This document shows positions 39,767 through 64,000 of a stretch of DNA of 64,000 nucleotides, one piece after another. The position numbers and the translations under genes were made by a program. Location of the stretch: the NCBI GenBank assembly GCA_001938485.1, contig MQRK01192830.1:1-64000 (forward strand). Direction: 5' to 3'. The notes beneath the pieces were generated by a model, which was given only the letters and a program-made list of their open reading frames with translations, made no database searches and was not told where the DNA came from. Every line of letters starts with the position of its first letter. Positions within the stretch are counted from its first letter, which is position 1. Origin of the DNA: Girardia tigrina. Its lineage: Eukaryota.

Positions 39767-40735
39767 TTACCACGTTTTTATTAGCTTGCTTTCTTGTCTG
39801 TTTGTCTGTCTGGAACAAATCTTGCGATTGATTTTTCGACCACTTTCAGTCATCCAATTGAGCTGAATGTTTATATACAGGCTTGCTTCAGATGACAATA
39901 CAATTTGATAAAAAAATTTTGAAAAAAAATAATTTTTTCTAATTTTTTTTGCAAAAAACCACTTACGGTTATCTACAAATTTATACACTGTATTAGATAG
40001 CAATCTTTTCGTTTATTTTCATGAATTAAGTTCAAATTACCAAATAATTTTATTTTGGAGATTGAAATTTTTCCAAAATATTTTTAATTTCATTTTTATA
40101 GGCCATTTTGGCAAAATAATTTCTTTTCCATCTTTTTTTACCACCTTTTTCTTAGCTTGGTTTCTTGTCTGTTTGTCTGTCTGGAACAAATCTTGCGATT
40201 GATTTTTCGACCACTTTCAGTCATCCAATTGAGCTGAATTTTTTTATACAGGCTTGCTTCCGATGACAATACAATATTTTAAATCATTTACTTTACGGAT
40301 GTACAGAAAAAATTAATAAATTGAACAAATATTGTGAAAATCAAGTGATAATTAAGTGTAGAAGTATTAAAATTAGGTTTAAAAATTATTTTGAAATAAA
40401 ACTNNNNNNNNNNNNNNNNNNNNNNNNNNNNNNNNNNNNNNNNNNNNNNNNNNNNNNNNNNNNNNNNNNNNNNNNNNNNNNNNNNNNNNNNNNNNNNNNN
40501 NNNNNNNAATAATATTATTAATAAAAAAAAATTTTATAAAAACAACCACGTTTTTCAAGTATTACCAATGCACTAAAAAGAGGAAAATAATTTTTTTTCT
40601 AGACATGTGCGAAATTTTATACCTAACCAAAAACGTGGGGCATAGAAATGATCGATTGTTACTAAAAAGCAGTAAAGAGGAAATAGCAGTTACTAATAGC
40701 AGTAATTCAGAAATCCGCCCCACGTTTTTGTTAAT
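39767..40735 (-). repeat. rearranged partial duplicates of the gag region at 42386-42953 (direct and inverted)
   Basis: 39767-40025 and 40153-40275 match 42386-42685. 40508-40600 is an inverted copy of 42862-42953. 40590-40712 matches 42745-42865. Confidence 0.85.
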
Positions 40736-40975
40736 CTATCATTGATGATTTTTAAGAATCATTAAATCATTTTTTTATTTTTCTCCAATTATTACTATTT
40801 ATGTTATGGATTAAAACAAGCAATACTTTGTTTATAAAAATTTTAATGAATAATTTTATATATTTTGATATTTTGCACTATTTTTAATGTTTTTACTTCA
40901 AGGGAATGCTAGAATAATAATTAATTTAATCTTTAAAATAAAATCCAATAAATCTTAAAAGTATTATTATTTTAG

Positions 40976-41055
40976 TCTGTAACTTTATGGTCCATGAACG
41001 CTGTCTGCCAAATGTTGTATCGTATTGCAGTACTGTGGCTGTGTCTCTTGTTACG
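40976..41055 (+). CDS. DGKQ: diacylglycerol kinase theta, internal exon (end of first C1 domain)
   Basis: ttattttag| ... |gtaagt; 80 nt, phase 1 to 0; (V)CNFMVHERCLPNVVSYCSTVAVSLVT. Joins in frame to the exon at 56096. Confidence 0.85.
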
Positions 41056-41311
41056 GTAAGTTTTATTTTGTATTAATAGTAATTTTCTAAAGATTCTTAA
41101 AAAATACACGAAACTCTATTTATTCTGTAATAAGTTACGAATTCAACATAAACAATAATACATAAACAACTAGGAAATCTTCAAGGTCAAAAATTAAACT
41201 TTAATCAAAAGAAACAAATATTTTAATACGTAATAAAAATACCATAAATATAATAATAATGATTTCTGTGACTTTTAAAATCAATAGTAAAAATCAGTTT
41301 AGAAGATAGTT

Positions 41312-43670
41312 TTACTCTGATAAACTGATTTTTACAGCTCCCATTAGAATATCATCTTGGTAAATAATGACTGCAGATAAATCACCAATGAGATGTTCCA
41401 TGGTCTTTTGAAAGATGGCTGATGCGGATTTCATACCATAAGGTAAACGATTGAATTGGTAAAGACCTAAGGGTGTATTGATGGTCGTAATTGGTTTGGA
41501 TAATTCATCCAGTGGCACTTGCCAGTAGACAGCAGACAAGTCAAGTTTAGCAAATTTTTACATTCGAGACATTTTACTTAGAGATAATTCAACATTAGGA
41601 ATTGGGTACGACTCATAACAGAATCGGCTGTTTATTCCCATTTTATAGTCACCACAAATCCTAACAGATCCACCAGACTTCTGATGACTACAATTGGAGA
41701 TGCCCATTCGGAACCACCTTCAACTCTGGAGATGATTCCACCCTTCTCCATTTCCAATAGTTCGTTCATTGTCAAAGACTGAATATGAATTGGAAGATTT
41801 CTAGTTTCAAAGTAACATGGGTGACTTCCATCTTTAACACGTATTCTGGCTTTGTAGAAATTGACTTGTCCAAGATTTTCGTACTTAACGTGATTGATAA
41901 CGACATTCGATTTTGACATATTGATAAGATCTGTGCCAATGAGTCCGTCAGCTTTATTATTCATAGTGATGATAAAATTTGTTCTCTATTTCAACTAAAG
42001 CTTCCATTTCTCCAATAATTTTCAACAGAGAACCATCGTACATCCTCAGTTTTTTCTCCGATTTCTTTAGATTTGGCTTTCCAATTTTCATCCAAAAATT
42101 TCATGGTAATATGGAAATAGAAGCTCCTGTATCCAATTGCATCGGAAGCACAGCATTATTAATGACCATTTTACAAAGTTCTCCTTTTCCATCAGTAAAA
42201 CATTTCTCATCCATTTTATTTTCTAATTTCAAGGAATGCGTTGGCTTTGACCGGCATTGAGAAGCAAAATGATTATTCTTCAGATATTTATTGCAGATTT
42301 TGCCTTATGCTGGACATTTTCTACGAGTGTGGATTTTTCAACAATATCCACATTGTTGTCCTGAACGGACCTGATTTTTTTGATTTTTACCACGTTTTTA
42401 TTAGCTTGCTTTCTTGTCTGTTTGTCTGTCTGGAACAAATCTTGCGATTGATTTTTCGACCACTTTCAGTCATCCAATTGAGCTGAATTTTTTATACTGG
42501 CTTGCTTCAGATGACAATACAATTTGATAAAGAACTTTTTGAAAAAAAATAATTTTTTCTAATTTTATTTGCAAAAAACCACTTACGATTATCTACAAAT
42601 TTATACACTGTATTAAATAGCAATCTTTTCGTTTATTTTCATGGATGAAGTTTTATACAGGCTTGCTTCCGATGACAATACAATTTGATAAAAAAAATTT
42701 TGAAAAAAAGTCCTAAATGATAACTAAAAATAGTTAAATAATAATTTTTTTTCTAGACATGTGCGAAATTTTATACCTAACCAAAAACGTGGGGCATAGA
42801 AATGATCGATTGTTACTAAAAAGCAGTAAAGAGGAAATAGCAGTTACTATAGCAGTAATTCAGAAAAAAATTATTTTCCTCTTTTTAGTGCATTGGTAAT
42901 GCTTGAAAAACGTGGTTGTTTTTATAAAAAATTTTTTTATTAATAATATTATTGTCTATATAGTCAACATTCACGTTATTTTTGTCTTCCATAAAGATTT
43001 TGATTTGTTCTTGATTTTGAATAAAATCCACAGTTGTTCTAACATACATCTCCTTAATCTGATTTGCCTGTAACACTGTTAGTTTCATTTCTGATGAATG
43101 TAAACCGGAAAAGAACTTCAAAAGTAGCATGTCATCTTCTCCATTCATTTTATGGAATTTGCAAAAAAAATTTGAATAGTAAATATTAATAGGTTCATCA
43201 GGCATTTGAACAGTTTCCAAAAATCGTGTTCTTTCAGCAATTAATAATCTCACTTTGGGAGCAATATAATCCAATATACAAATTCTATTTCTTCATATCT
43301 GGCTTCCGATAAAATCCTTGGATGTATTAAACTTTTGATTTTTTAGAGCCGTCATTCCACATTCTGTCATAAATAAATCCGCCTGAGAATTTCTATCTTC
43401 TTTATCGCTGACATTCTTTATTCTGTATTTTGCTTCAAAAGATGATATCCATAATTCCGCGTCTTCCGAGTCATCCAGGTTCAGATCAATCATCGTCGCC
43501 ATTGATAAGTCATTAAGTATTGAACAACAAGACTAAAATAGACAAGTAGTAAATTATTTAAACTGAGAGCTTTATCACACGCATTTAAACAATTAACATT
43601 TATTTATAATTCATACATATATAACGATTGGGTTTTTCCCAATTACATAAAAGTAATATGTTTATGATCA
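41312..43670 (-). mobile_element. Ty3/Gypsy Mag-type retrotransposon, 3'-truncated (LTR, PBS, gag, PR, RT)
   Basis: LTR end ...cttatCA-a-TGGCGACGA (43503/43501). Gag knuckles CGYC*KIH..KCPA*GKIC..NHFASQC, protease MQLDTGAS, RT SEWASPIV, FNRLPYG and YQDDIL. LTR outer end uncertain. Confidence 0.9.
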
Positions 43671-45348
43671 GTTCTTAATAAAAATCTTTTACCGTATAAA
43701 AAGTGTTTAAAATTTTGCGTAAAATAATAAATTACAAGCAGCTCTTTCCTCGTAACACAATATCCAATATGTATATTAATGTCTTACGAACAAGCCTCGA
43801 TTGCAGAGAAAACCCGAGATAAAAACGTTATATAATACTTTTTTTCAATTTCAATAGGATAAGAAAAGGATATGGAATTTACATATTCAAGATAGAATTT
43901 GTAATTTATAACTTTTTATTCATTAATATTACTAAATATGTATTATAAAAACAAAACAATAAATCTAATATTCAAATATATTGGTAACACTAATAATAAC
44001 GACTCCGCCCATAATTAAACTAAGGAATTAAATTAATATTTGTAAATAATTATTATAAAAATCATGTATTGCATAAAAATATTTAACTTCGTTAAATTAA
44101 TAAACATTAAACAAGCAAAATTGTTGTTGTTTTATTATTTTTATTATACAAAACAATAAAAAATTGAAAAATAGTTATTGTGAACAAATTGGGAAAATAC
44201 ATACACTCATGAATATAAATAAAACATGTATTGTGTTCGGAATTCAGATTTAAATTGTTATAACAATATTATTATCGTTATTATACCGAATACTTCCTTC
44301 CTCTACCCGATCAGATCAACAAATTATTCGCATGTAAATTCAAATTGAGAACATTATCATTGGTTTTAAATGACAATCTCTGTTCCTGCATATCCTCAGG
44401 TTGCCCTAAATACCACTCTGTGGTAGCAGAGTATTCAATAATAAAAATTTTGTTTCAATAATAAATCATAATTTGAGTCAATTTTTCTTATCGAATCAAT
44501 ACCCAGGTTGCCCTGAAGACCGGTCGGTGGTAGCAGAAGCGCTCAGGAACTCCGTCTTGTTATGAGTAAACTCTGTACTGGGCCCATTTGTTGATAATAA
44601 ATCACAATCGATTTTTAGTATAAAAAGTAATTTTACAATGATTATTCGTACAGAAACTCAGGAGAGTACGGCACCCAAGACCATTATTAAATTTATAATT
44701 TGAATATGATTCTCTTGCTTGAGAAAGCTCATCTTTAACTTGTTTGCATGTCAACTCAATGTAGCAAAATTGTTTTGAACAATAACAAAAAGTTTAATTA
44801 ATAATAATAATTCAAACTAAGTTTAACTCAGTATTGAATTAAAAAAATTATTTAATATTTATTTTCTTTAATATTTAACTTTTTACTTTTATTTAAAATT
44901 TATTTAGTTTTAAATTAAAATTTTTTTACATATTACTACACATATCAATCTAAATAATCAAAGCGAATAAAAATTATCACAGATTGTCATTCAAATTTCG
45001 ATAAATGTCTTCAGATTGATACTCAAAGTTCGGAAAGAGGCATGGAGAGGTATGGAATTCAAGTATAAATAATAATAAAGATAATATAAATTATGATAAT
45101 ATTTGAATCCCGAACTTCGGCCATAAAGTTTTTAATTTCGAGTCAAAAAATATCCCATATAGAGAAAATGCCGAATTGTCATTAATCCAGAATTATAAAA
45201 TTAAAAAAGTGATTTTCATCACAAAAAATATTCCATTTTCACTCTGATTTTAAACAATCAGAGCGAGTATTTCTCTATATTATAGAGATGTAAAATTAGT
45301 TTTATTGTGTTATAGAGTCTATAACATTTAAATCCGGCCAATTACGAC

Positions 45349-45560
45349 TGTGAGGAATGTTTTGGATTGTTTGTTGATATTGTGCATGTGGTATGTTGAT
45401 TCGGATTGTGTCTCTACTACCCAGAAGGATGATTGGTATTTTCTTTGATTCCTACTAATTAAAAATAATATAATTTAATTTTAAAGTAAAAAGATTTAAA
45501 ATAGTTTTTGAATGTAATTTTTAATTTTTAATGTAATTTAAAATTTAAATGTATTAATTT
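45349..45560 (+). mobile_element. diverged LTR of the TG...TA group (5' part)
   Basis: Starts tgtgaggaat and has the core gtgtctctactacccagaagg ~60 bp in. 3' end not resolved. Confidence 0.55.
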
Positions 45561-46280
45561 AATGTATATGAGGGGTTAGTTTAAATTTTCGATTCGCTGA
45601 ATAAATAAATGTTTTTAATTTAAAAATTTTGCAAAAATTAAATAATAAAAAAAACATAGTTTAAAATCAAAACAACTTAAAAGTTGATATATTTCAGTTG
45701 AAAGTTTTAAAATAACAATTTTAAAAGAAATAATACAATAAATAAAAGTTTTTGTATAAATTTATATATCAAGCTGCTAAAAAAGTTTTTACGAAATTAA
45801 ATAGTTTTTTACAAATTAATTTTAAAATTAGATGTTTATAAATGTAAAATTAGTTTTATTGTGTTTAGAATATTTTTAAAAAATACATAATAAAGACTTA
45901 GTTTAAATAAAATTTTCAACAAATAAAATGCATTTAATAATAAATATTTTTAGAATTTTATAAGTTGATTGCATCTTATTTAAATGAAATAAATTGATTT
46001 TATGAGTGGTGAGGTTTTATAAAAGCATTCTAAAAATAATAATAAAGTTTTACTTAAAAAGGAAAGTTCAAAAATATGTTATCGAATATAATAAATTATT
46101 TTTAAAGTTTTTACAATTTATTGGATTTAATTTAATGGAATAAATTAATTTTATTTTTCATATAATTTTAAAAATTCATTTTAAAAATAATAAAAATTTT
46201 AAATAGTAAAATGTCAAAAATAAGTTATAGAATATAATAAATTATGTTTTTTTACAAATTGAAAGTAAAATAAAATTTAT

Positions 46281-46435
46281 GAGACCAAATGGTTCGTTCA
46301 TCCACGTTCATTTATCCCGCCTTCGTTCATCCAAAACCTGTTCGACCCGCGTTCGATCATCTCCGTTCGTTCATCCTGCGTTCGTTCATCCCGAATTTTT
46401 TTGTTCGTTCATCCCAAATTTATTTTAAAGGATGA
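46281..46435. repeat. tandem gttcgttcatcc array, probably a MULE/foldback-type terminus
   Basis: About seven degenerate ttcgttcatcc units. Confidence 0.55.
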
Positions 46436-46454
46436 GCTTTGGTAGATTTACCTT

Positions 46455-47150
46455 TTTTGGTTTTTTTAATTTATTTTTTTTCTTTTTTCTTTTTTTGTGT
46501 AAGATAACATATAAGCATGACATTTAAATACAAAATAGTTACACACATACTTCCTAGAATTTAATTGAAAAAACTTATTTATCTTATCAAAGAAAGTGAA
46601 GTTTAGCAGAGTAAAAAAGTGAGCAGATAGAAGTGTTTGGTATAGGGAAAGATTATATTTAATTAATTTTTTCCAACATTTGAATTTTTCTATATTCTCT
46701 GATTCCTATGTGAACTTAACTATTCAGTATATTAATCGAAAGGTTAAATCTATGTTAGTAGTTGAATTATTAAGAATAAAAAAGAGTTAAGAAGTGTATG
46801 TTCAATCTACAGATTCGGCTCAATAAACGTTAAATAGGGTATAGGTTAAGGTCAATGGGCTTATTTAAATAATTCTTTTTATATTTTCTTTTTTTGTGTG
46901 AAGTTTTATTAGATTATTATTAAAAATAGATAAAAATTAAAAACAGATAAGTTTTTAAAAAGCACTTGTAGTGCTATGATTGAAATATTAAAGTCTGACA
47001 AAAAGTTGCTTAAATTATGCAGTTTTTAATTTGTTTTAACAAAAAGATTATTAAAACGTTTGAACAAAGTTGCAGCAATTTAGTTTAGAAACTATCTTTT
47101 TTATTTTCAAATACAATAAAAATTAAATTAAATTTAAACCATCGACATTA
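46455..47150 (-). mobile_element. possible LINE 3' end, highly degraded
   Basis: A-rich tail on minus at 46455-46500 and a weak AESVD zinc-binding-like remnant. Confidence 0.3.
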
Positions 47151-48428
47151 TTATTATAAATAAAAATATGAATTATGTTTTCTATTTTTAATTAATTTAT
47201 TTTTCCTTTTCAGATTTATTTATTATTAAAATTAAAATTACGATTTAATATAAAAATACAATTTCAAAATTATTTCATTCATTTAAACCAAAATCTTTAA
47301 CAACACTCAAAAACGTTTCTAACTTAGTGAACACGAAAAGTAAAAATTTTTAGGAAATAAAAACATATGAAATAGGCAAAGATCGAAATATCGTTTATTT
47401 TATGTCTAAGGTAATATAAAAATGAATTACACATGGGAAATACGTTTCCATTAATTTTTAGTTTGATTATCCTGTAGGAAATATCTGGAGAGAAATTTAT
47501 CTTCTGATTGATCAATTGTGATTTGCATTTGGTAAAAACAGTGCTCTATTCTGCTTTGATGTATTCTTTTTCTTATCAGATTTAATTTATAATTTTTTTT
47601 GACAAATTTGAACTCTGTAACTCAATAAATCCCGTTTTTTTTCAAATGCAATATTAATTGAAACATTTAATCTTCATTTTCATTTAAAATTATCACGCAT
47701 CATTTACAGTCTGGTTTTTTTCGGACATTTTTATTTTTTCCCGGCTAGATAATTAAAGATAAATTTAGAATTTTTACTTTTGTAAATGAGAAATATTGTT
47801 TTCAAAAATGACGCATTTTCACCAATATTTTGCTCGGGTCGTATAATTATTCGAAAAATTTCGATGTCTTTACATTTTTTAATGTAAATAAACTGCTTTT
47901 AGAGACGAAATAAACTTTTAGTAAGGACACCGTATTTTTGAGTATATAACTGAAATCAATGTGCCCTGGTAATAAATATATTTATTTGATTATCTCAAAC
48001 CTAAAAATCTAGTTCCGCATCAAACTTCCACAAATTGTATCCCTCAAATTCGTAATTACAGATATTCTACATACATAATTCGAAACCAAATCAGGAAGTC
48101 GTCAAAAATATTTCTATGTTCAGATCCTTTTATTAGTTATGCCAATATCTGTAGTCATTAATATATTAAAATAAAATCAAAAAGTATATTTAAATCACAC
48201 TAAATTAGAAAAATTTAGTAGTAAGCTCACCGAATCTCGATATTGCAAATGATTCAAATCTATTACAATTTCTTAAAATATTTCTTAAAAATCGGATTTT
48301 CACTTTTTTTTATTTTACCTGCACTTTTATTTATTTTACAAATTATTCATTTTTATTCCTTTTGTTTCAATGTATAATTTTATTAATTAGATCTATTTTT
48401 CAATTCTTAAATAAAAAATCTTACTTTT

Positions 48429-48864
48429 TATAAAGAACACCAATTTGACTTTTCATATTTTTATTAACACAACAGGTTTGATTGTCCTTAAGACAATCTT
48501 TGTTAAAGCTTTCGTACGAGTGCATTCTAACTAAATTGATTAATAACTTAATTCTTATTATTTTTAGCAAATGGAGAAAAAATAATTTATTAAAATATTT
48601 ACTCAAAACTTAATGGATAAAAATTAAAATGATTATTAATTATTTTAAAAATTTTAATTCGTTATTTTATTAAAAATTGTAAAAATTAATAAACTAATTT
48701 CAAATTTTACAATTATTTTAAATTAGAAATAAATTTAAACATTACATATTTTTAGATAATAAGAATTCAAATAATAATCATCCATCTGGATAGGAAAGAC
48801 ACAGTTCTAAATCAACATACAACATTTAAACACAAAACATCAAACATTCAAAATATTCCTTACA
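48429..48864 (-). mobile_element. solo LTR of the 1015-2427 Gypsy element
   Basis: Aligns over its full length to 2018-2427. TSD CTTTT/CTTTA; ends TG...TA. Confidence 0.9.
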
Positions 48865-49334
48865 CTTTAAAAATACCTTTTTAAAATATTTACCTAAGTT
48901 ATCTTAATGCTTAATAATAAAAATGTATTTTTCAACTTTTTAATTTAAAATTATTAATTCAGACTTTTTAAATATATAGGGTATTTATTTTTTACTCAAA
49001 AATAGAAATAGATTTATTAATTTTTTCATTTAAAAATATTCGTTTTACATTTTAATCACGCATTTGTGTTTTTAATTATACACCTCTATTTCTTTATTTT
49101 TCTTTTCAAAATTCTTACTTCTGAATTATAATAACATTTTACTTATATAAAAATATTTTATTTAACCTCACTTTTAATATGAATTTTAAATTTTGCTACT
49201 ATTTAATTATAATTTTCCGAACTAATCCTCATCATTCTTATTTGAATTCAATCGAACTTATGAGACATTTAAAAGATATTAAGTTGGCGAATATTTTTCA
49301 AAGATAATTTTGTTCCTGTGTAGTTTAATGTAAA

Positions 49335-49784
49335 TATTAACAACATCACAATTTGAATGCAAACATTTATTTACAACACAAACAGATTCTTCACAACAAT
49401 TTTCAGAAGTCATCTTTCTTTGATTGATATAGCTTTTGATTAACTATTCAAATATGAAAAAATCAATGAATGAGAAATTTTAATATTACATTTTAATTTC
49501 TCATAATTTAATTGGATAAAAAGACATTATGTAATTTTTTAAATAAACATTAATTTTTAAAATATATTAAATTTACTAAGTTAAAATCGTTTACTGAAAA
49601 TATTATTAAAATTCATAATTATCAAACTTTAATTAATTAGTACTTAAAATTAATATCATTAAATTAATTTCATTAGATTCAAATAATCAATCAATAAACA
49701 TATCAATCCCATCTGAGTAGGAGAGTCACAAATCTAAACAGCATACAATCAACAAACTTGCAACATTCCAAATTATTCCTCACA
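49335..49784 (-). mobile_element. solo LTR (TG...TA family)
   Basis: Perfect TSD GTAAA; near-identical to 3628-4075. Confidence 0.92.
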
Positions 49785-49947
49785 GTAAATATTTACAAAC
49801 TTAAAAACTTCAAAATTTCTAGAATTGGGCCTGAGCACCATTGTTAAAAAATATAAAATTGATAAAATTTCACCCATGGCGGCATACCACAACAAAATTA
49901 TTGTATCGTGCCGTTTATGTTCCCTCAAAATGCAGCGCAAGGTTTTG

Positions 49948-52138
49948 CAGGGCTGCGTTAAAGACAAAATCGTGGTCCCTAAAAAACACATAAACGCACA
50001 AAGAAGAAAGAAATAAACAGAATTTATTAATTTTCCACTCAGCAATTAAAAAATTTAATTTTATGCAGCAATTATTTTTAAAGGATTTTTCTTGCTTTCT
50101 TCTTGGTGAAGTCTTCAATCACTTCGCCGTAATTGATGCACTTTCCAACCTCTTTTTCAAAGCGTTCCTGAGTGATACTTGAATGAAGGCTTTTTTATAA
50201 ACCTTGAGAAGCTCCAATCGGTTGAAGCCACAGTGACTAATGTTGTCAGCAATATTCGAAGAACAATTAATAAGTTTAAATAGGCTTCAAATAGGTGGTT
50301 TTTTATGATATAAGTTATTACCTCCAAACTTGTACATTTTTTTCAGGAATAACAGGCTTAAACATGTTCATCTCTTCAAATATATCTAATCCGGCTACAT
50401 CCCCTTCGAAATACACATGGAAATCTTGGTAAAATTCGAATAATTCATTTTCGTTCAGATTTACAAATATACTATTATATGGGCCTCCCATTTCTTTCAA
50501 GAATGATATTGAGCCTATAGGGTCTTTATATGGTTCACTCAAATCGAATAAGTCTATAAGCTCCCCGATAGGTCTCCTATGGGGACGTCAGCCTTTCGCT
50601 TCCGTGCACCAATCAGAAACGAACAGTCATGGGTAGTATTCCCATGATTCTGCATCCCTTTGACCGTGTACGTGGACTTTACGCATCCGCGAAACGGGCA
50701 TCTCAAGGTTCCTCCACAGTTAGATCTGTAAGGCGGTAGTCCAGATGGGTTTCTAAAGGACTCGTTTCTGACTCTCCTATCAAATCAGCATTCGGATCGA
50801 CGATTGGTACTTGAGTTGCGTTATCTTCTGGTATCGCGTTCAGTGGTAGATTCCCTTCTTCTGATTGTCTGGACTGACTGGTTCTGCTCGGAAAAATTTT
50901 GATTAATTGTTCTTATTCAATTTTGTGAAATGTTTGTAGAAGTCTGATGAGCCATCTTTCGGCATAGATGGCAATCGAATCCCTTCGACTCTTCTTCTTG
51001 AGGGACTCTTGGTCTTTGATCTTGTTTCTCGTGTCGATTCAATTCTGTCTGCTCCGCGAATTCCCTGAAATAAGATTCGTATGAACATTGAAACAGTTTG
51101 ATCCGCGGTCTGATAAGTTTTGGCATGTCTTATGAACTCCGCCCAATCATTCGCCTCTCGCATATTATTGAGTCGATCCTATCTTTCATCTTGAGTTGAG
51201 CGCTTTCCTGCTGAATTAATTTTAAAAAATAATCAAAGGAAGTGGTTTCTCCAAAAAGCCATTCCGTCTAGACTCTCAGACATTCTTTGATTTGTTGCTT
51301 CTTTCTTTCTGAGATTTTCTTACCATCTGTCATTGAGGATTCAATGACTCTTTTCAGGGTCATCGGTCCATTGTCAGTAGCTAAGAGAGCGTGGAACGGG
51401 AGCCGTTTCTTAGTTAGAATGTCCATTGAGGTAACCAAATTGTGATGGTTACCATGATTGTGTAGGCTCTGCAGTTTCTTTACCAGTGTGTCGGTAGTTC
51501 TCCAATTTTCACACTCATAGTATACTACAGGTAGTATACAACTCTCAATCAATTTTCGCTTGCTTCGGATTGTTAATTTTGGACACTTTAGGATGGGTAT
51601 CAAAGTTCGTAGCTTGCCGTACCTTTTCCTTATTCTCTCTCTGATATCTGCCTCACAAGTTTCGTAAGAAGATATTATTGAACCAAGGTAACTGAACTCG
51701 GTAACCCATTCGATTCTAGACATCATCTCGCAACCTACTGTTTGTATTTTCGAGTCACCATTTAGATTCATAATCTTGGTCTTTTTTATGTTGATTTTTA
51801 GACCAAGTTCCTAGAACACTCCGTTTAGAATACGTAGATTTCTTGTTAACTCATTATAGTCTTTGTCAATGAAACAAAGGTCTTCTGAGTTTACGCTCCA
51901 ACAGAGTCTGGATATACCATAGAAGAGAGACGAAACTTCTATGAGAAACTAAACGAGTTAACGATAAAGATTTTTTTTTCATTACTAATAAAGCCTAAAT
52001 ACAGAAATTTGCTGCTCTGGATTCAGTCCTCAGGGGGCTATCAGGAAAAGATTCATACTAATTATTTCTATTGGCCGATAAGCAACTTAAAAAATAGTGG
52101 GGGCCCAATTTGCGTGCGGTACTTGAGGACATGCCCTT
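49948..52138 (-). mobile_element. hAT (ZMYM1/Tip100-like) remnant with a LINE inserted
   Basis: LLIVLRILLTTLVTVAST..SFS and DFTKKKARK at 50080-50500. CAGGG-like ends with gggccc-like subterminal motifs (weak). Confidence 0.6.
50554..51969 (-). mobile_element. RTE-like LINE, 5'-truncated, with C-terminal C2H2 fingers and an inverted endonuclease fragment (51889-51969, + strand)
   Basis: GLKINIKKTKIM, EFSYLGSII and ILPVVYYECENW; finger CPFRGC..MQNHGNTTH. Inverted VYAPTE...FYEKL. Confidence 0.85.
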
Positions 52139-52402
52139 GTTAGTGAAAATAAATTTTTTACTTAAAATTTATTGAAAAAATACTTAGCTTTTTTAATAAA
52201 AAAATAAATAGCGTGAAAATTTTTCTCATAATAATTTCCACAGTTTCAAATTAGGAAAGATTCAAATTGATCAGTTATGCCGACTCGGATATTTCCCGAG
52301 CGTCGAAATTTTGATGTGGATACCAGATTCTTTATAATGTTTCAGAAACATCTTTTTATATGGTTCTCTATTGAATGAGCCTTGAACTGGTGGATCTCCA
52401 TC

Positions 52403-52509
52403 TCTGGTTATAATAATAATAATAATAACTGGTTATCATAATAATAATAACTGGTTATAATAATAATAATAACTGGTTATAATAATAATAATAATAAATA
52501 ATAATAATA
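52403..52509 (+). repeat. compound microsatellite ctggtt(ata)n x4
   Basis: Direct reading of the sequence. Confidence 0.9.
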
Positions 52510-52940
52510 TTGTCTCATATTGTCCGACATGCCCACATTTGCAAGATGGACTGATGATTTATTGGGATTATAGTGTCAAATCAAATTAGATCGTTATGTT
52601 ATTATTTTCTCATATCAAACTTTTGCATTTTGATTGGGCATCTTTTTGTTAATAATTTCCTTTGAAATACTATATTTAGATATTTGGCTCGTTATTTTAT
52701 ATTCGATTTTAAATTAAAATTGATAATTAAAAAGTCATTAAATGAAATGTGAATTTTATTATCTCGAATTTCTTTATATTAGTTGGTAGATTGAAATTTA
52801 TTTTATTAACTTTTCAACTGGTTTCATATAAGTATCCTTTGGAAAATGAGTACAATTAAAATAGTCTGTAAAAGTTATATTCCATTTTTTGACATAGATA
52901 AAAAGGAAAAGAATGACTTTTACAAACATTTGAATTATTA

Positions 52941-53156
52941 CCCTAAGTTCTTGTCTATAAGCCGGACATGTGTATAAACTGGTTTCTCAAAATTATATAT
53001 ATTCTAAAAAAATTTTTTTATCTTAGATAAGCCGGACTCATGGATAAGCCGTAAAGTTTTTCGATTTCGAAACAATTTGATGTTCACTTTGTGATCAAAT
53101 AATTATCAGCTACTTTTGTAAGATTAACGCCGCGGCTTATAGACAAGAACTTAGGG
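52941..53156. mobile_element. pogo/Tigger-type MITE
   Basis: Perfect 24-bp TIR ccctaagttcttgtctataagccg with TA on both sides. Confidence 0.9.
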
Positions 53157-55119
53157 TAATTCGATTTTAGTATAGGATGTTTAAGATTAACACGAGGAAG
53201 GTATGTCATCTGTTCCATGATAATATTGCTACCATGAATCTCGCTTTAATGTCTGTAATGCATCGATATAGAAAAGGATATTTAGAATCAAGATATTGTT
53301 TATGGTCAAATGTATGAAAGATAAGAATTTAGGTTTTAATGATCAAACATAAAGTAATGATGACATTGATATATTTTATGACGAAATCTTGATTTATTGA
53401 CATTATTATCGGTTATACAAAAATTTATTGCATCGGAATTTACTGACGTCTTTGAGAACATTATGTCAGATAATATTATTCATGAGTATTCAATGAATAC
53501 TATTCATGGGAAATAGAAAACTGTCTCAGATTATTTAGGTCGTCTTTGATAGTTAAACTTGATTTAAGGATGTTTGTTATATTGTTTTGAATGTATAAAA
53601 TACTTATTATTAAAACTAGTAAATCAAAACAAACTTTTATATATCCATGCTTTATTCGGACAGAACTCTACTTGGTCAACACAATTCGTGAAAACACATA
53701 CACTTCTTGTATATTTTAAAATGTATGTAGAATTGAAAATTGAAATTTACTGTGTACAGTTTGGAGAAAATTGATTGAGGAAAAAGTCGCCAAAAATAAT
53801 TTTCTAACTTTCATTGACACACTTACATAAAAATATATACATACCTATATATATAATATATATAAAGCATTGAAAAAGAGATTTTTATACTAAAATAAAG
53901 ATTTTTGAATTTTATGAATTTTCAGCCATTTTTTTATGTATGTTTTGAAGAATATAAATTAAGTTTTCCGGAAAACCTCGTCAAGTATTTTTGAACATAC
54001 AGGAGGACCGGTGACATGTAAAATCCTTGTATAAGTCGATACGGAGTAAAAGTCGAAGGTCGCCATATTTATGTAAAAAATGTCGATTTATAGTACGAAA
54101 AATATAATAAATGCCTCTGTCATAAATTTTTGTCTTTTTTTGCAATATTTGTGTTGTTTATGTATGAATATAAAAATAGTATTTTTCGTATGAATGAAAA
54201 AAATATGTTACTCTGATCATCGGAACATGGTTTAAATGTAAACTTTCCCAAAATATAGTATAGAAAATGTTTCATTTTTTTAAATATAGTATAACAAATT
54301 TCCAATTTATGTCTTGTTCTTTGCAAAAAGTAATTTTAATAAAAATAAAAAAAATTTATAAAACTTTTCGATTTGTGTCCATAAACGACATAAAACGATT
54401 GCAAAAGGTTTCTGTTGTTTAAATACAAAAATAATGAGATATATCGATTTTGTCTTGTTTTCTATTTTCTGTACTTTGTCTATGATCATTATATATCTTT
54501 ATTATTAAAATAAACATTGGAAATTGAAGGTAAATACAGATAAATAATAAAAATATATTATTGTGAAAAATATTCTGCGAATTTAAACAAAACTTCTTTA
54601 ATGATCAATTTAAAATCTCAAAGAAAAGAAAATTGTTAAAATTAAAAAAATTCATAAAATAAAAAGATCTGTATTAAGTTGAATGTGGATCTTTAAAAAT
54701 TAATTAGTAAAACGGAAATAAAACGTTCTGGTTATAAATATTCCATTATTAGAAAATTAGTTTTTTTAAAAAAATTTATTTTTTTTGATATTATTCATTA
54801 AAGCTTGTATATTTTTTTATTCTATTTTTTATTTAGTAACCATATTTTTTGATATTTTTATTATGTTTATATTTTAATATAAATGGTAAGTAATTAATTT
54901 TCCTTCTTCCATTTCTTTTAATATTAGAATTATCTCTTTTTTTATAATATTTGTATGTAGATTCTGTTAATTTAATGATGTTATTTTAGGATGTCTAAAA
55001 ACTTAAGATTATAATTTCTGACGTTAAAAAACCAATCAATGTAATGAAATCATAACACTTACAATAATGATTTACGATTCTTGGCGATTTTTTAATAATT
55101 CGTATAATGCAAAAATACT

Positions 55120-55875
55120 TACCCGTCCCTATTAGTTTCAAGAAGGGTACATTTTCGGTGCTTTGTAAACCAAATCACATATGGATATGATATCAATCAG
55201 ATTTTGTTGCGCTCAGATTGTGCGGAACCCATAGACAGTGATTCCCGTAATTGTGCTTTCATAAAAGCTCATGGACAGTGGTTTTCGGTATCTTCAGTAT
55301 TTCTGCTAATTCACGAGTCGAATAGTAAGGATGTGTCTCGATTAGGGTCTTGAGTTGGTCAGTATTGGAGGGTCTACTAGTTGGCTCTTTGTCTTTGAGG
55401 TTGAAATTACCAGCTCTGAACTTGGAAAACCACTTAAGAACTATTTTGTCAGCTAAACCATGTTATCTTAGTCATCAAATATTTTGTTTTATGCTTGAGT
55501 AATATTCTTGCTTTCTTGAAATAGCAAAGCATCAAGTGACGAAAATTCTTCAATGTTTTCATTTTTAAATCGGCGAGTAGCAGATACATGTCAATTTAGG
55601 TAGACAATATTTTTTCTTAAGATTCGTCAAACCATTCATATGTTTCCTATACCTTTGACATATTCTGACTCATGTCAGTGAGAAAATTAAATATTAAAAA
55701 ATTATTACAAATTATTGTTAATAATTTGTTTAAATAATTTTATTTGTGTATTACTAATAAATCTTTGAAAACAATTCTTACTTTTAATTTTAAATGGAAG
55801 AAAATAATTATCTGGAAATCGACCCAGTTAACAGCCATGTTTAGACAATCGGCACGAACTTTCTGAACAACCAAA
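55120..55875 (-). mobile_element. mariner 5' half
   Basis: TIR ttggttgttcagaaagttcgtgccg. Motifs WFSKFRAGNFNLKD, STRELAEIL and WVPHNL. Confidence 0.85.
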
Positions 55876-56095
55876 CATTACTTTCAAACATTTTCTTTGG
55901 TTATTAATATAATGTAATATAACCTAATTTTATCATCGTAATTTTTTTTACCAAAATATCGAATTTTTCTTTTATTTTTTAATTTACATTTATTTACTTA
56001 ATTATTTTTTCTTGTTTTATTTTATTTTATTTTTGTCATTCTTTTAATTTATATCTTTTTTGGAAATATCAAAATAATGCTACTCTTATATTTAG

Positions 56096-56198
56096 AAGCC
56101 CGTATCTCATTGTTGGTCTGAAAAGAACTATTTCAAAAGGAAATTTTGCAATGTTTGTCGAAAGCGTTTGGATGAATCGTTGGCATATCGATGTGAAA
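56096..56198 (+). CDS. DGKQ: diacylglycerol kinase theta, internal exon (first part of second C1 domain)
   Basis: tatatttag| ... |gtaatt; 103 nt, no stops; KPVSHCWSEKNYFKRKFCNVCRKRLDESLAYRCE, matching the DGK-theta PVAHCW..KRKFCxVCRK motif. Confidence 0.88.
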
Positions 56199-56734
56199 GT
56201 AATTTTTATTTTAAATAAATGGATCACATGTATGTTAAGCCTACCAGATGCCTTTAGAGTGTTATTTTATACTTTTCGAATTTTGGGGTTTTCATTGTTT
56301 TATAGAACAATATTGAGGCACGTGTTCTACAATTAATTAATTTTATGTGTTCACCACAATTGATTCAATTATGATAAAATTAAAAGTATATCGTAATATG
56401 AAAATAGTTTTAAAAATTAATGCTGAAAAATATTAAAAATATAGTAAACTTATATAGAAAAGCTTATAAAAACCTTGATTTAATAGAACTAGATCACGGA
56501 AATCAGTCTGTTTAATTTGTTGATAAACAAACAAATGATTATATTATTAATCATTCCATTCTATACTCAAACAATCAACTCACCTAGGAATAAAAATAAA
56601 GCTCAAATAAAAAAATAGAGGATGATGATTTATTAAACTAATATTTACAAGAATTTAGGTGAAAGGAGCGATTCATTTGTATTATATGTATATTAGTGGA
56701 ATAAATCGTATTCAATAATTAATTTGATCATAGT

Positions 56735-57021
56735 TGTGAGGGAAAATTTGGAATTTTGTAAGTTTGTTGTTTGAATGCTGTTTAGATTGGTGACTCTCCA
56801 CTCAGATTGGATTGATATGTTATTGATTAATTATTTAAATGGGATTAATGTTTAAATACAAATTAATTAAAAGTTTTATATTTATTAAATTTTCTGTATA
56901 TATATATATATATACAAAACATATTAATCAAGAACTATGCTTCCCACAGAAAGTCCTACTGATAATGATTCTGTTTGTGTTGTAAATAAATGTGTTCACT
57001 CAAATTGTGATGTTGCTAATA
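56735..57021 (+). mobile_element. solo LTR (TG...TA family), internally deleted
   Basis: TGTGAGG...GCTAATA with perfect TSD ATAGT. Confidence 0.85.
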
Positions 57022-58483
57022 ATAGTGTAGTTTCTTATCTTAATTTTATTTCTTTGATTGATTACAAGTAACTTAAAATTTCGGCGTGTCTTGTCGATAT
57101 TATTATTTTGTAGAAGATATAATCCTTATGTCTTGGATATGGAGATCATCTATCGGAATAGAATTCGACTTAATACACTTTATTCAATTAAAAAATTTTG
57201 TGTCTGTTAAGTCAATCTTATAAGAGGCTTACATAGTATCTAACGATGGTAGTCGTAAAGCTGAGAATTACATTAACTCGTTTTCTTTAACATTTCGCAT
57301 TACTATCATGAAATTAGTGACTCAAAATCCTCTAATCTTGGATAAACGTGTATAGCAAATCTTATTCTGTAATAGTTTATCAATTATCCAAATTTTAACA
57401 GACTAGTAAGTGTTTAACTTTAGTTATTTTAGAGTTTTGTTTGTAATTCAATTTTAAAAATCTTTATACTAGTCATGTTAAGATCTTAAAAACTGGGGGG
57501 AAGTTTTTGAAAAGATAGACAGTCTGAAATATAAAATTTAAATCGGAAGTAAGTCATTTTAAATTATTTATTAAAGATAATGGAAATTTATAATAGCATA
57601 AATAAATAAAGACTAAAAAATTGAGAAAAAAATCAAAATTAACAAAAAATGAATTAAATTAAATATTAAAATTAAAAAAGAATCTTTTATAGTCAATAAA
57701 ATTTTAAAAAAGTTTTTACAAAAAAATAACTAGTTGTCTAAAGATTCAGACAGATATAGAAATTTGAATAGTGATATTATTTTATGCATTTAAATTTGAA
57801 TAAGTGTTTTCTGGACTTTTGTTTTCAACTGAGTGATACACCAACCTTTTCTAACAAATCAATTATCATATCTTCGTCCTTTCAATTGTGTTCATAAGTC
57901 CGTCTCCAGAGGCGATTGGTTCTGTCTCAAGTGATTGAACTATTATAGCCTTACAAAACAAAAATGATGTTGGAATAATTTTATTAATTGAAAAGTTTTA
58001 ATTCACTATTTTAAAGATTGGAATATTTAAATTTTAATTTTTTTGTTAAAATTTGAATATTTAAAAATACTAAAAAGAAATTAATTAATTTATAATATTA
58101 TTTTTCTTTAAGTTTTAAGTAATTATTCTATTTTTTTCCTTTAACACAATAAACAAAAATATTTGTTTTACACTTTTACATAACAATTTGATGATAAAAA
58201 GGAAATCAAATATAAAATTCGATTTAGAGGGATATTTGAAAATTTCACGTATGAATAATTACAGCATTTATTTGTAATTTATTGATAAACATTGCTATTC
58301 TTTTACAAAACAATTTATAATATATAAATAGTTTTAAATCTATAATCTTTATTATGCATAGTCAATAATGAGATACAAAAAATAAATAAAATATTTATTT
58401 TAACACGGTTTTCTTTTCAGATTTATTTTAAGAAAATAAAAAAGGAAATATTGAAAATATATTCTAATTTATATATTGAAGTA

Positions 58484-58530
<47 letters not shown>
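58484..58530. repeat. (AAT)n microsatellite
   Basis: Direct reading of the sequence. Confidence 0.95.
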
Positions 58531-60226
58531 TTAGCAACATCCCAATTGTCATGAACACATTTATTTACAACACACAGAATCCTTTTCAGTAGCACCTTTT
58601 ACGGGCGGAATCGTTCTTAGTTAATATGTTTTTTGTATCTATATTCAAACATTTGATTAATAAATGAGATTTTATAATTATTAAATTTTAATTTGTCGAA
58701 ATATAATTGGATAAAAATACAATAAGTAAATTTTAAAATAAACATTAGTTTTTAAACTATATAAAATTTAATAAGTTAAATCATTTACTAAAATATTATT
58801 AAAATTTATAAATAAATGGTAAGATAATGACTATTAATAGATTATGACTATTATGACTATTAATAGATTATGACTATTATGTCTATTAATAGATTATAAC
58901 ATGTATTTGAGACTGAAATATGCCACCTGACATTATTTTTCATTTGTTTCTCTGTTACAGCAGCTTGCCTAGAGCTGGTGGAGATTTGGATATTGCAGAT
59001 TTCACACGGCGTATTGTTGGCCTTCTTGAAGGAAGTTTATCACAATGCCGTGTTGCAGAAGTTGTTGGATGTTCCCAGTAAACAGTATCCAACGTGTGGC
59101 GAAGATAGAAGTCTAATGGATCGTGTGATGTTGCTCGACGCCCGGTCATCCACACATTAACACTTCTCGAGAGGATCGTGAATTTTGGATGGCCATCATT
59201 CTGGGCAGATTCAGGTCATACCGAATGCTTAGATATTCACTATCAGTGCAAATCTCTCGTCGAAGTCTCAACAGACGAGCACTGCAGCTAGGGTATGGCT
59301 CTCATAATCCTCTGGTTTGCATACCTCTGACTCCTATTCACCGACGTTGTCGTCTTGCCAGGTGTAACCAATACAAGATGAAGGACAATACCTTTTGGAA
59401 GAGTGTAATTTTTTTCTGATGAGTCAAGATTCACACTAAAATTCAATGATGGAAGAATAAAGGTACACAGGCGTTCAGGGGAGCGATGCAATGATGACTG
59501 TATCCGAGAGCACAATCACTTCACCGGAGGAGGTACAATGGTCTGGGGTGCCATCGAATTTAGCCACAAATCGCGTCTCCTTGTTTTGGAAGGAAACATT
59601 AATTCTGAGCGTTACATTCATGAGGTCTTCGAAGCAGAGGCATTCTCCTTTGTTATGGAGACACCGGGCTATGTCTTTCAGAAAGACAATGCTCGATGTC
59701 ATACAGCAAGGGCAACGATGAACTACCTTGCAGCTACGTCAGTAAATGTTCTACCGTGGTCTGCATAGTCTTGCGATCTCAGCCCAATAGAACATCTGTG
59801 GGATGAAATTGGTCGTCTAATTCACAGTGCAAACTCAACTCTCATTGCAAACCATCATGAACTTCACCAACGTCTACTGGATAAATTGGAGGCCATTGAC
59901 CTATATGTCATCAATACCTTGTGTGACTCGATGTGCAACCGTGTAAAAGTATGTATTAAAGCTCGTGGTGGAGACACATCATACTAATCATTAAATTTCT
60001 GATGTTTGTTTGGAATTTTTCAAATAAAAGTGATGTTTTTCTATGTTACCATTTACTTTTGGCCACATATATAATTACAAAACTTTTAATTAATTAATAT
60101 TTAAACAATAATTTCATTAGATTTAAATAATTAATCAATAACATATCAATACCATCTGAGTAGGAGAGTCACCAATCTAAATAGCATACGAACAACAAAC
60201 TTTAAAATTCAGAATTTTCCTTCAGA
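58529..60226 (-). mobile_element. solo LTR (TG...TA family) split by a Tc1 insertion
   Basis: 58529-58810 and 60070-60226 align to consecutive parts of 49335-49784. Confidence 0.8.
58811..60068 (+). mobile_element. Tc1 (DD34E) transposon; transposase pseudogene ~58960-59987
   Basis: FSDESRF, MVWGAI, FQKDNARCH and W..*SCDLSPIEHLW. Right TIR ttaccatttacttttggccac, truncated left TIR aaataaatggtaa. Confidence 0.9.
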
Positions 60227-61963
60227 AATGAAAATAATGCAATAGGATAATTCGAAAAATAATGATAAAATAATAAAACATAGGATAGGTCAACAACCTT
60301 CTCATTATTGTCACTACTAAACTTTCCTTTGAAGTACATAGAATTATCTAAATGCTCCAACGCGAAAGTGGTAGTATTAAAATGGAAAATATTTCTTTAC
60401 TCCTGTTTCAGAATTTTAAGTTAAATTTATATTTGTATTTGTTGCTAATTTTATTTATATTTCAAATGTCTTCTCTCCTGCCGAAAGACTGTCTTTCAAT
60501 TTTGGATGATTTTTTAATTGTTTTATTTGATGAATTAAAAATTCGCTGAATTGTTTTCACTTGATTACTGATATATATCTTGAGGTTCATGGGACGCTCT
60601 TTTAATTAAATCTAAAAAAAGACATTTTAAATTAATTTATTTAAAGTATATTTTAAAAGTATATTTTGAGGTATATTTTTAGAATATATTTTTAAGTAAA
60701 TATTAATAAATATTTATAAGTAAATATTAAAACAGAAATGTTTAGATTTTTAAATTAATAAAAGTATTAAGTTAAATAGATTCAAAAGGAATTAAATTTA
60801 AAGTAGGTGGAAAATTAAATAGTTTTGAAATCAATTTAAATATAACATCTAAAGAATAGTTAAACAGAATTTAATAAAATTTTAGAAAGTAAATACAATA
60901 GGAAGAAAAACCAATATCATAATAAATATTAAAATTTACGAAATTTAATAAAATGTTCATTTTAAAGAAAATACAATATTTTAAAAAAATACAAAATTAA
61001 ATACGAAGTTAATATGTAAACTATTTGAAAATAGTTTATAATTAAAATAGTTTTAAATTCAAAAAAGTTTATAAAATTACAGATAATACAAAATTTCGAA
61101 AATAATAAATCTGCATATTTATATTTACAATTATTTTAATTTTATTGGTTTGTGCAAGAAAAATTTAACAATCGTTCCTTGAAATTTAATTAGAAAAAAC
61201 TTGTTTGAATAATGTTTATATTGTTGTTATTAAATAAAAGTTTCGAAAATGTTTAAATTTTCATCTGAGAAAGAATACCGAGCCTGACATATGTTAAATA
61301 TGATAATTAAATAATTAAATTGATAAAATTTAAATAATTAAATAAAGGAAATTATTATTCTTATAAATTCGAAGAAGTTTTTTAAGATTTTTAACAAGGC
61401 AAATGAAACAAAACTTAAGTTAACATCTTGGAATTCTGGATAGTTGTTTAGGAAAGACCTACCTACATGCAATTATAACTTACTAATATACAGTCTAATG
61501 ATTATGATACTCTTGACTAAATATTTTCATCTTTTATTCATTATCCATCGTGGTGGAAATAATCGAAAAACATTCTGATGTGTTTTGAAAAAATTATATT
61601 CCTAGTATATATGTATATATATGAAATAATTGCCATACATTCATTTCAGATCAAATATGATAACATAAAATCTTTCTGGGCCTAAATGTGTGGTACACAG
61701 TTTTCCCTTTCATATTAAGTTATGGATCACGGTATATTTGTCTTCTAGATCATTGTTGCCAAGATTTCCATATTTGTAAAATTAAAATACCTCATTTGTA
61801 AAAAATTTATTAAAATAAATAAAATATAATAAAAGATATGATAGTGATTAAACATAATCAAAACTTATTATATAATTAATTTCTGAACTTACCTTTATCC
61901 AAAATATAATTCAATAATCATTGTTTATAAAACAAAAAAACATCATTAAAAAGTATATTTTAA

Positions 61964-62194
61964 CCCTTCATTTCATGATTTAATTTTAAAATTTACTTTA
62001 AATTTTTAAAATTTAATGATAATTTTAAGCGTTTAACTGATTTAACAGATACGTTAGTGAATATTTTTGAATCTAATAAGTAGTAAGGTTTATAATTAAA
62101 TAATCCGCATTAAAACGGTTGACTATTTGATATAAGTATTTAAATATGATACCTTTGACAATGTAGCAAATCTTCTACACAATGAAATGAAGGG
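61964..62194. mobile_element. piggyBac-type MITE
   Basis: TTAA TSD; perfect 13-bp TIR cccttcatttcat. Confidence 0.8.
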
Positions 62195-62901
62195 TTAAAA
62201 TGGTTTGGTAATATATTGGGCACCATTGCGTTACTGCGGCTCATCAGACCTGGTTGAGTACGAATTCCAGAAAATCTATTCTCACCGTGGTTAACATTGA
62301 ACTTCAAATGGAAATTAAACAATCATACCGATATATTCGAACGAGTTTCTAGTCAGACAAAGTTATTTCGAATTAGAATCGGGAAGACTGATAGAAAACT
62401 TGATGTCTTTAACGACATAAACAATTCGACAAATGTAATTAAACTTATAATTGCCACGCTGATAATGTTCCTGTATTAAATCAACGATCGTTTGAAAATT
62501 TATATCACTCGCATTTCTAGTCATTCATTTATGATTAATAAATGTTTGTTTTAAAATTTGAATATTTTCCTGTAAAATCGGTTTCAAGTTATACTCGATT
62601 AAATATATATTATAATGTGTATTAATACAAAATGAATCAGAGCTTTTATTGTTACAATTTATCATATACTCGTTTAGTAAACTATCCGTCGACAATTTAC
62701 TTTTGTATTTCTGTATAAAACTCATCACAAAATTAAATTTTCTACCAAAGCTTTTCTCAAAAAAATTATTTGATTCAAAATTCTTTCGCAACAAAATTCG
62801 TTAAGTCACATTCAAACAAAATTTCTTTACAATCAACAATTTCGATTAACATTCTTGCCACAAAATTTCATTCATAAAAATTATTCAAGTTACATACAAC
62901 A

Positions 62902-63911
62902 GTTAAAACTCCAGGTTTCACTTCAGAATTCATAGTATCAACAAGTAAAATTTATATTTACAATCTTTTCAAAATACTTAAACAAATCAATAATCACAAC
63001 TTTCCACCTCTTTTATAATTCGTTATTTACTTTCTTAATCCACTCAATTCTTCGACGAGTTATGCTTCCATCTTTCAGATTCTGTAGTTCCAATTGGTGT
63101 AGCGATATATGTCTTAAAATTTGGTACGGTTCATCGAATGGGAAAGTGTCCTTTCTTAGTTTTATAGGATCTCGTTTTACAAAGACTGTCTGACCATCGT
63201 TGAAATGTCGATTTGTTCTCTTCCCTCTCTCCCAATTTTCCATTCTTCTTGCCGCTTTCTCCAAATTTGCTTTTACCTTCATCTTGATCACGTTGCTCTC
63301 TTCCGTTTTAGCGATTCCTGCTGCCGCATGTAAGTTTATTTTTCTACCAAACATAACTTCGAAGGGCAAATATTCGGTCGTACTCTGAACTGTTGCATTT
63401 AGACAGAATTCTATCTTCGGAACAATTTGTCACCATGATCGTTTGTCTGTGTCTCCTCTGCTTGTTACTATCATGTCTCTCACTGTTCGAATAGTTCTTT
63501 CTGCCAACCCGTTTGATTGATGCTGAAATAGCCTACTAAATCTTTGTTATATTCCATATTTCCTGCAAAAGTCTTTAAATTTTCCGCCAGTAAAACATTT
63601 TCCATTATCTGTTAATATTGTTTTTGGCTTCCCATATCTATATAAAAATTCTGAGCATTGGCATATGTCTCTATACCATATTTGACCTTCTTCAGAATCC
63701 ACTCCATTGTACTCCTTCATTTTCTTCTCGAGGGTTTCTTTAAAGATTGATGGTAGTTCTAGTTTAGGAAGCCTCAAAACTTTTATTGGAACACCAGCGT
63801 GGTCGCCAGTTAAATCTCCAGGTTTCATTTCTGAATTCATAGTATCAACAAGTAGAATTTATTTAATATTTACAATCTTTTCAGAATACTTAAACAAATT
63901 AATTAATCACA
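62902..63911 (-). mobile_element. ~1-kb mini Gypsy element: two ~100-bp LTRs, PBS, gag stub fused to integrase, PPT
   Basis: LTRs 63809-63911 and 62902-62998. PBS TGGCGACCACG; integrase YGKPKTILTDNG..QSNGLAER..PFEVMFGR; PPT aaaagaggtggaaag. Confidence 0.88.
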
Positions 63912-64000
63912 ATTTCAACATTGTTCCAAATTTCTAAAATAAGCAAAACTCAAAAAATCTCATTTTTATATTAAATCATTTTTTTATTAAAAAACCTCAA

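Follow-up and report, generated by a model that had tools for sequence, protein, structure and literature searches.

Type V diacylglycerol kinases (DGKs) are marked by three C1 domains, and in worms the loss of DGK-1 leads to more acetylcholine release (both statements from excerpts of PMC5021689). The gene described here lies in a planarian genome. Planarian GC content is 28-30% according to the excerpted text of PMC11410931, which also describes, for Schmidtea genomes of 1.25-1.5 Gb, introns that have expanded, partly by transposon insertion, with the longest genes reaching 380-513 kb. In Dugesia, introns form short and long classes split at 316 nt, and the large introns are longer (10.64898/2025.12.11.693146, in excerpt). 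The same excerpt states that no transposon-driven intron lengthening was found in Dugesia, and such lengthening is therefore no rule for all planarians (10.64898/2025.12.11.693146). In the literature that we searched, in which subscription journals were sparsely covered, no title dealt with planarian DGK-theta, with its paralogs or with a triplication in flatworms.

The window that we analysed covers positions 1-64,000 of contig G000:C192830 (79,998 nt; hereafter C192830), which belongs to a Girardia tigrina assembly that spreads 1.43 Gb over 255,254 contigs. The GC content of the window is 29.5%. An original prediction, made from the letters of the window, had proposed that two small exons of a DGK-theta gene lie on either side of a 15-kb intron filled with transposons. 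We consider it very probable that these are spliced exons of a DGK-theta gene, that this gene is one of three paralogs, and that the intron likely grew by piecemeal transposon insertion with the protein unchanged.

Exons A and B are joined across a 15-kb intron

The two exons and the intron between them are the following.

40976-41055, forward strand: exon A, 80 nt, entered in phase 1 and left in phase 0; encodes the latter half of the first C1 domain (C1A) and a linker
41056-56095, forward strand: A-B intron, GT..AG; 15,040 nt free of N, of which repeats make up no less than 41%
56096-56198, forward strand: exon B, 103 nt, entered in phase 0 and left in phase 1; encodes the opening half of C1B

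Each exon is preceded by AG and followed by GT, and the phases are compatible. When joined, the exons are free of stops in one of the three frames, which gives the peptide that had been predicted. Matched singly against Pfam C1_1, exons A and B gave E-values of 0.0031 and 9.6e-5, both short of the cut-off. As a control for the motif in exon B, we looked for H-x-W-x10-C-x2-C, which the window contains once and which 3 of its 30 shuffled versions contain as well, and so the motif by itself is no proof.

Among nine candidate sequencing runs, six shared a small part of a 401-nt query, about the amount expected from the exon alone, and no run contained as much as half of the query's words; four of these six were aligned, and all four covered the exon. 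Alignments were made to positions 40600-56700, and the label "likely RNA" used here is a guess, none of the nine candidate runs being recorded as RNA. Contigs from all four likely-RNA runs (three samples, three studies) join position 41055 to position 56096 and skip the 15,040 nt from GT to AG, which is the junction proposed in the original prediction. In run X1, the contig that spans the joint has a length of 4,012 nt and covers exon B without a mismatch. Run depth is not usable as a measure of expression, because the runs consist of contigs and the intron repeats attract unrelated ones.

The skip is precise, in frame and at canonical sites, which points to spliced RNA as its source. It speaks against a retrocopy as the origin of the joined form that, among the best candidates of the exon searches, no genomic site has A and B adjacent. 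Chance is excluded by the exact joint in four of four runs together with three further collinear exons, described below. With GT..AG ends and removal in all four likely-RNA runs, the A-B intron is a spliceosomal GT-AG intron. We conclude that both exons are genuine and belong, as spliced parts, to a host gene.

Three further exons lie downstream on the same contig

Using twelve relatives as queries, we located exons C to E on the contig beyond the window.

56199-64000, forward strand: start of the B-C intron, with Tc1/mariner and integrase scraps; the whole intron is 8,623 nt
64822-64910, forward strand: exon C, second half of C1B; placed by homology, splice signals and phase (not reads)
71066-71197, forward strand: exon D, which together with exon E gives the third C1 domain (C1C) and its extension; E 1.4e-18 and 80% identity to Trichobilharzia regenti A0AA85K155; placed by homology, splice signals and phase (not reads)
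73320-73464, forward strand: exon E, the other part of this pair; placed by homology, splice signals and phase (not reads)

The prediction had found no following exon in 56199-64000 and had set the downstream intron at more than 7.8 kb. Both points agree with the next exon beginning at contig position 64822, and other DGK-theta exons, on whose presence the prediction had been staked, number three on the same contig. Introns A-B, B-C, C-D and D-E measure 15,040, 8,623, 6,155 and 2,122 nt, all of them GT..AG and without N. Translated together, exons A to E give 182 residues without a stop, made up of half of C1A, then C1B, and C1C with its extension. Exons C to E would be spliced into the same transcript as A and B.

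Relatives of the exons point to a type V diacylglycerol kinase

A search by shared words, with exon B's 40-codon frame as the query, returned no relatives; a profile search with exon B then gave 107 at E-values up to 0.001. C1, RA, DAGK_cat and DAGK_acc are all present in each of the seven relatives of at least 764 aa, and five of the seven also have RBD_DGKtheta; four multi-stretch matches of 427-598 aa and 29-33% identity lay outside this architecture scan. Ten relatives were considered by name: five are DGK-theta/DGKQ, one is a diacylglycerol kinase, one is a phorbol-ester/DAG-domain protein and three are unnamed or hypothetical. The product of exons A to E is 48-62% identical to the best 15 of 111 proteins over 154-196 aligned columns (49% for a Patiria protein). 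A single contig carries the second half of C1A, the whole of C1B and the whole of C1C, and these align over their full extent with DGK-theta proteins that have three C1 domains, and the first half of C1A would lie on another contig. The extension after the last C1 domain is also present, exon E having 33-63% identity and E-values down to 3e-11 among the matches listed.

Could the exons belong to a different C1-domain family, such as PKC, another DGK type or chimaerin? The single exons match only the generic C1_1, under its cut-off, which would fit such an origin. Against it stand three tandem C1 domains in the order and spacing of DGK-theta, and the DGK-theta-like architecture of all seven long relatives, and we give this alternative next to no weight. 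The third C1 domain and its extension rule out another C1 family. The DGK-theta identity named in the prediction is thus borne out by domain architecture, by the names of relatives and by the third C1 domain downstream. The sequence evidence supports DGK-theta, a diacylglycerol kinase of type V; the gene adds to a long-established family, and its surroundings are nothing special. By analogy with the DGK-theta/DGK-1 family, the predicted product would convert diacylglycerol to phosphatidic acid and end diacylglycerol signals.

RA and theta-specific RBD-like regions are found in the genome as three sets, on contigs other than C192830. Three kinase-region sets are also present, with 69-72% identity to T. 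regenti A0AA85K155 (237/331, 243/345 and 248/361). The RA and kinase exons of the gene would be among those scattered across other short contigs, and we infer, rather than read from one contig, which kinase set belongs to the C192830 copy. The contig ends 6,534 nt past exon E, and RA and kinase exons are absent from that stretch. A contig that stops 6.5 kb past exon E without either is what would be seen if the exons came from a transcribed pseudogene, or from a truncated C1-only gene, with no working kinase. We consider this very improbable, since 182 codons run stop-free over five exons with canonical splice sites throughout, the 4-kb run contig has room for a whole DGK-theta frame, and the genome has three kinase-region sets for three N-terminal sets. 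A DGK-theta gene whose later exons lie elsewhere in the assembly is the reading that we carry forward.

The genome holds three DGK-theta paralogs

The upstream exon and exons A, B and D each occur in the genome in three distinct versions, alongside the three kinase-region sets. We conclude that the genome holds three DGK-theta paralogs. The kinase-region sets are 64-72% identical to one another and group with Trichobilharzia (support 83/98, in a tree of 11 rows). Neither the lengths nor the boundaries of exons A and B differ among the three paralogs. The original prediction had asked how intron positions compare among DGK-theta genes, and the position of the A-B intron proved common to both other paralogs, in which it measures 14,385 nt, including 3,110 N, in one case and 5,133 nt in the other.

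Other introns differ more among the copies. The D-E intron is 2,122 nt in the C192830 copy versus about 45 and 56 nt in its sisters (counted by eye), and the first intron is 53 and 80 nt in the sisters versus probably at least 43 kb in the C192830 copy (see below). It is a mild oddity that the C192830 copy is long where its sisters keep introns of 45-80 nt. As a separate observation, one of the three kinase sets is split over four short contigs, and its assignment to the C192830 gene is a guess; a split of this kind is expected of a copy with long introns throughout.

The first coding exon probably lies on another contig

No preceding exon had been seen in 1-40975 by the prediction, which further held that the upstream intron may exceed 40 kb and that the whole transposon field may be intronic. 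With a profile of ten relatives, we searched all sequence of the 79,998-nt contig that is not N, 1-40975 included, and did not find the upstream half of C1A (best E 2.6). The same profile recovers three control exons on other contigs at E-values of 3e-15 to 4e-19, and a genome search gave the same three upstream exons and a fourth, much weaker match (E 0.99). Two of these upstream exons, on C250079 and C144486, are separated from the exon A that follows them by 53 and 80 nt. The third is unpaired, and it bears on how the first part of the window is read.

G000:C192593:2019-2427, reverse strand: unpaired upstream exon; includes a start codon, has 409 coding nt, and its GT donor is in phase 1, as exon A requires
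1-40975, forward strand of the window: probable part of the preceding intron, by elimination; transposon relics and four N runs

There is no exon A within the 2,018 nt between the unpaired exon and the end of C192593, and of the three versions of exon A, that in the window alone lacks an upstream partner. Because both lack partners, the two pair by elimination, and the pairing implies a preceding intron of at least 2,018 + 40,975 = 42,993 nt. We thus think it likely, by elimination, that the first coding exon lies on C192593 and that the preceding intron is at least 43 kb long.

Four N runs 5' of exon A are unsearchable, and the continuity of the contig there is unproven. The same gene might then have a short or moderate upstream intron, its exon falling in an N stretch or being displaced by misscaffolding 5' of exon A, in which case 1-40975 would be partly non-intronic. 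The N runs leave room for this arrangement, both paralogs have an intron of 53 or 80 nt at this place, and C192593 and C192830 share neither an overlap (by blastn, positions 1-2,600 of C192593 gave only two matches of 35-38 nt) nor a read-level link. We nevertheless regard a short upstream intron as unlikely, since the unpaired third exon has a phase-1 GT donor that matches exon A, and since a hidden exon implies a fourth copy of the upstream exon. In addition, about 550 nt of the X1 contig lie 5' of exon A if coordinates follow the record's own strand, a length that fits the C192593 exon because 409 coding nt and a leader of about 140 nt would account for it. Pairing with the C192593 exon is therefore the reading that we prefer. 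Of the prediction, the absence of an upstream exon stands for the readable sequence, and the intron of more than 40 kb with a wholly intronic transposon field is likely, the only unpaired upstream exon being on another contig.

Repeats cover at least two fifths of the A-B intron

Repeats found elsewhere in the genome cover at least 6,175 of the 15,040 nt (41%) of the A-B intron, a floor, because each genome search scored its best 40 candidates. To this extent the intron is "TE-filled" as described; the other 59% is unassigned. The features that we recognized are listed here.

41336-43625, reverse strand (antisense): decayed LTR-retrotransposon relic, presumably Gypsy-like, with a gag zinc-finger-like piece and the start of a reverse transcriptase
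45339-46911, no strand: run of non-coding repeat families, many copies, 87-96% identity
49324-49822, no strand: young non-coding repeat of about 450 nt, copies at 92-97% identity
50160-50342: hAT dimerisation scrap (Dimer_Tnp_hAT, E 3e-4), just ahead of the repeat on the next line
50459-51971, reverse strand: repeat of 1.4-1.5 kb that contains a disrupted retroelement-like frame; most copies are 80-88% identical
52937-53160, no strand: MITE-like element, 224 nt, with perfect 28-nt terminal inverted repeats

The relic at 41336-43625 matches RVT_1 (E 1.1e-14) and zf-CCHC_5 (E 0.05), and we take it to be Gypsy-like from the order of its domains and from its motifs. Its copies on other contigs are 83-92% identical and are missing a 558-nt stretch (~42390-42946). 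The 180-aa frame of the 50459-51971 repeat had no Pfam match, and its element class is putative. The MITE-like element occurs at no fewer than 39 other sites at 95-98% identity. Identities that range from about 80% to 98% suggest insertions of different ages, and nothing that we saw points to any function of the intronic repeats. The A-B intron would have reached 15 kb by piecemeal insertion of transposons, and the protein would have stayed unchanged.

We scanned 20 intron frames (chosen from 55) against Pfam and obtained five matches at E <=0.1, with only RVT_1 above the cut-off. Outside the intron, 129 frames (>=60 aa, GC >=27%) gave 13 matches at E <=0.001, 11 of them to transposon domains; the other two were FLYWCH and a weak Baculo_PEP_C far under the cut-off. 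Neither frame scan, through which short exons would slip, revealed a nested second host gene. The prediction had called every surrounding reading frame broken, which is roughly right; the exception is a mariner-like frame at 24359-25246, stop-free over 296 codons although apparently shortened and degenerate.

Discussion

The 15-kb intron is likely not much out of the ordinary, because its counterparts in the two other paralogs are long as well and because transposon-driven growth has been published for planarians. The biological weight of the locus is small, since it adds one further DGK-theta gene. It does serve as a reminder for annotation that a field of transposons may be the interior of a working gene when, as here, a 1.4-Gb assembly is fragmented. 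The exons are 80-145 nt long, 2-15 kb apart and probably spread over more than one contig. That DGK-theta is triplicated and that introns grew very unevenly among its copies are small, testable side points. On the second, we lean towards the view that, after DGK-theta tripled, one copy swelled at nearly every intron while the corresponding introns of its sisters remained compact; read in this way, the first introns, at least 43 kb versus 53 or 80 nt, differ over 500-fold. If this is true, the three paralogs would form a natural control set for what allows an intron to leave the short class and begin to collect transposons.

Compared with Schmidtea lugubris and S. nova, as the excerpts of PMC11410931 describe them, the genome studied here is alike in its GC content of about 29%, in its large size (1.4 Gb here) and in intron relics of DNA transposons and LTR/Gypsy-like elements. 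The intron expansion in those two species (PMC11410931, in excerpt) differs from ours in scope, in that we describe one gene without a genome-wide intron distribution. As for the protein, the three tandem C1 domains and the C-terminal extension of the C192830 gene are common to the type V enzymes DGK-theta/DGKQ and C. elegans DGK-1. Over exons A to E the product is 58-62% identical to T. regenti A0AA85K155, Diaphorina citri XP_026682648.1 and Anopheles bellator XP_058055693.1, and no block is missing. Mammals have one type V DGK according to the excerpted text of PMC5021689, whereas G. tigrina has three divergent paralogs.

DGK-theta paralogs and other DGK-type exons

The genome holds three divergent copies of DGK-theta, with 64-72% identity in the kinase region, and in a small tree all three paralogs grouped with flatworm sequences. 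The contigs carrying them are listed below; the order of listing does not pair kinase sets with N-terminal contigs, and two of the three kinase sets were assembled by guess out of separate contigs.

Contigs of the G. tigrina assembly (prefix G000) with DGK-theta exons
N-terminal sets: C192830 (contig of the window), C250079, C144486
Kinase set: C239062/C252494/C11608
Kinase set: C13236/C10717/C156565
Kinase set: C218450/C134473/C150725/C161212

One exon gave identical scores on three contigs (C28022, C164190 and C250079), and identical scores for one exon were also found across C219880, C156565, C157449 and C157450. Contigs that share an equal-scoring exon are probably uncollapsed alleles or duplicate contigs, and therefore copy counts in the assembly are too high.

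More distant DGK kinase-domain exons, with 39-55% identity to the Trichobilharzia regenti DGK-theta relative A0AA85K155, were found on C179019 and C253526, where some matched pieces lie 2-7 kb apart. These exons likely belong to other DGK types.

Repeats and transposon relics

Within the Gypsy-like relic of the 15-kb intron, 558 nt at ~42390-42946 are absent from other genomic copies. This stretch, on which assembled contigs of sequencing runs (RNA by guess) stack, probably inserted itself into the relic at a later date. Two smaller features also lie in the intron.

43646-43767: 122-nt piece matching (~92%) the interior of 1.2-kb and 2.7-kb run contigs; probably a repeat borne by another transcript
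52404-52519: short tandem array, unit 22-25 nt, based on a TAA microsatellite

Elsewhere in the window we noted the following transposon sequences.

9170-12507, minus strand: second, larger LTR-retrotransposon relic, broken (RVT_1, Integrase_H2C2, rve)
24359-25246, plus strand: stop-free 296-codon frame of a mariner-like transposase (hits to Transposase_1, E 9e-13, and HTH_48)

The GC content of the LTR-retrotransposon relic is ~40-43%, compared with 29% in the window overall. The mariner-like frame is presumably shorter than the full enzyme, and we take its last catalytic motif to be altered.
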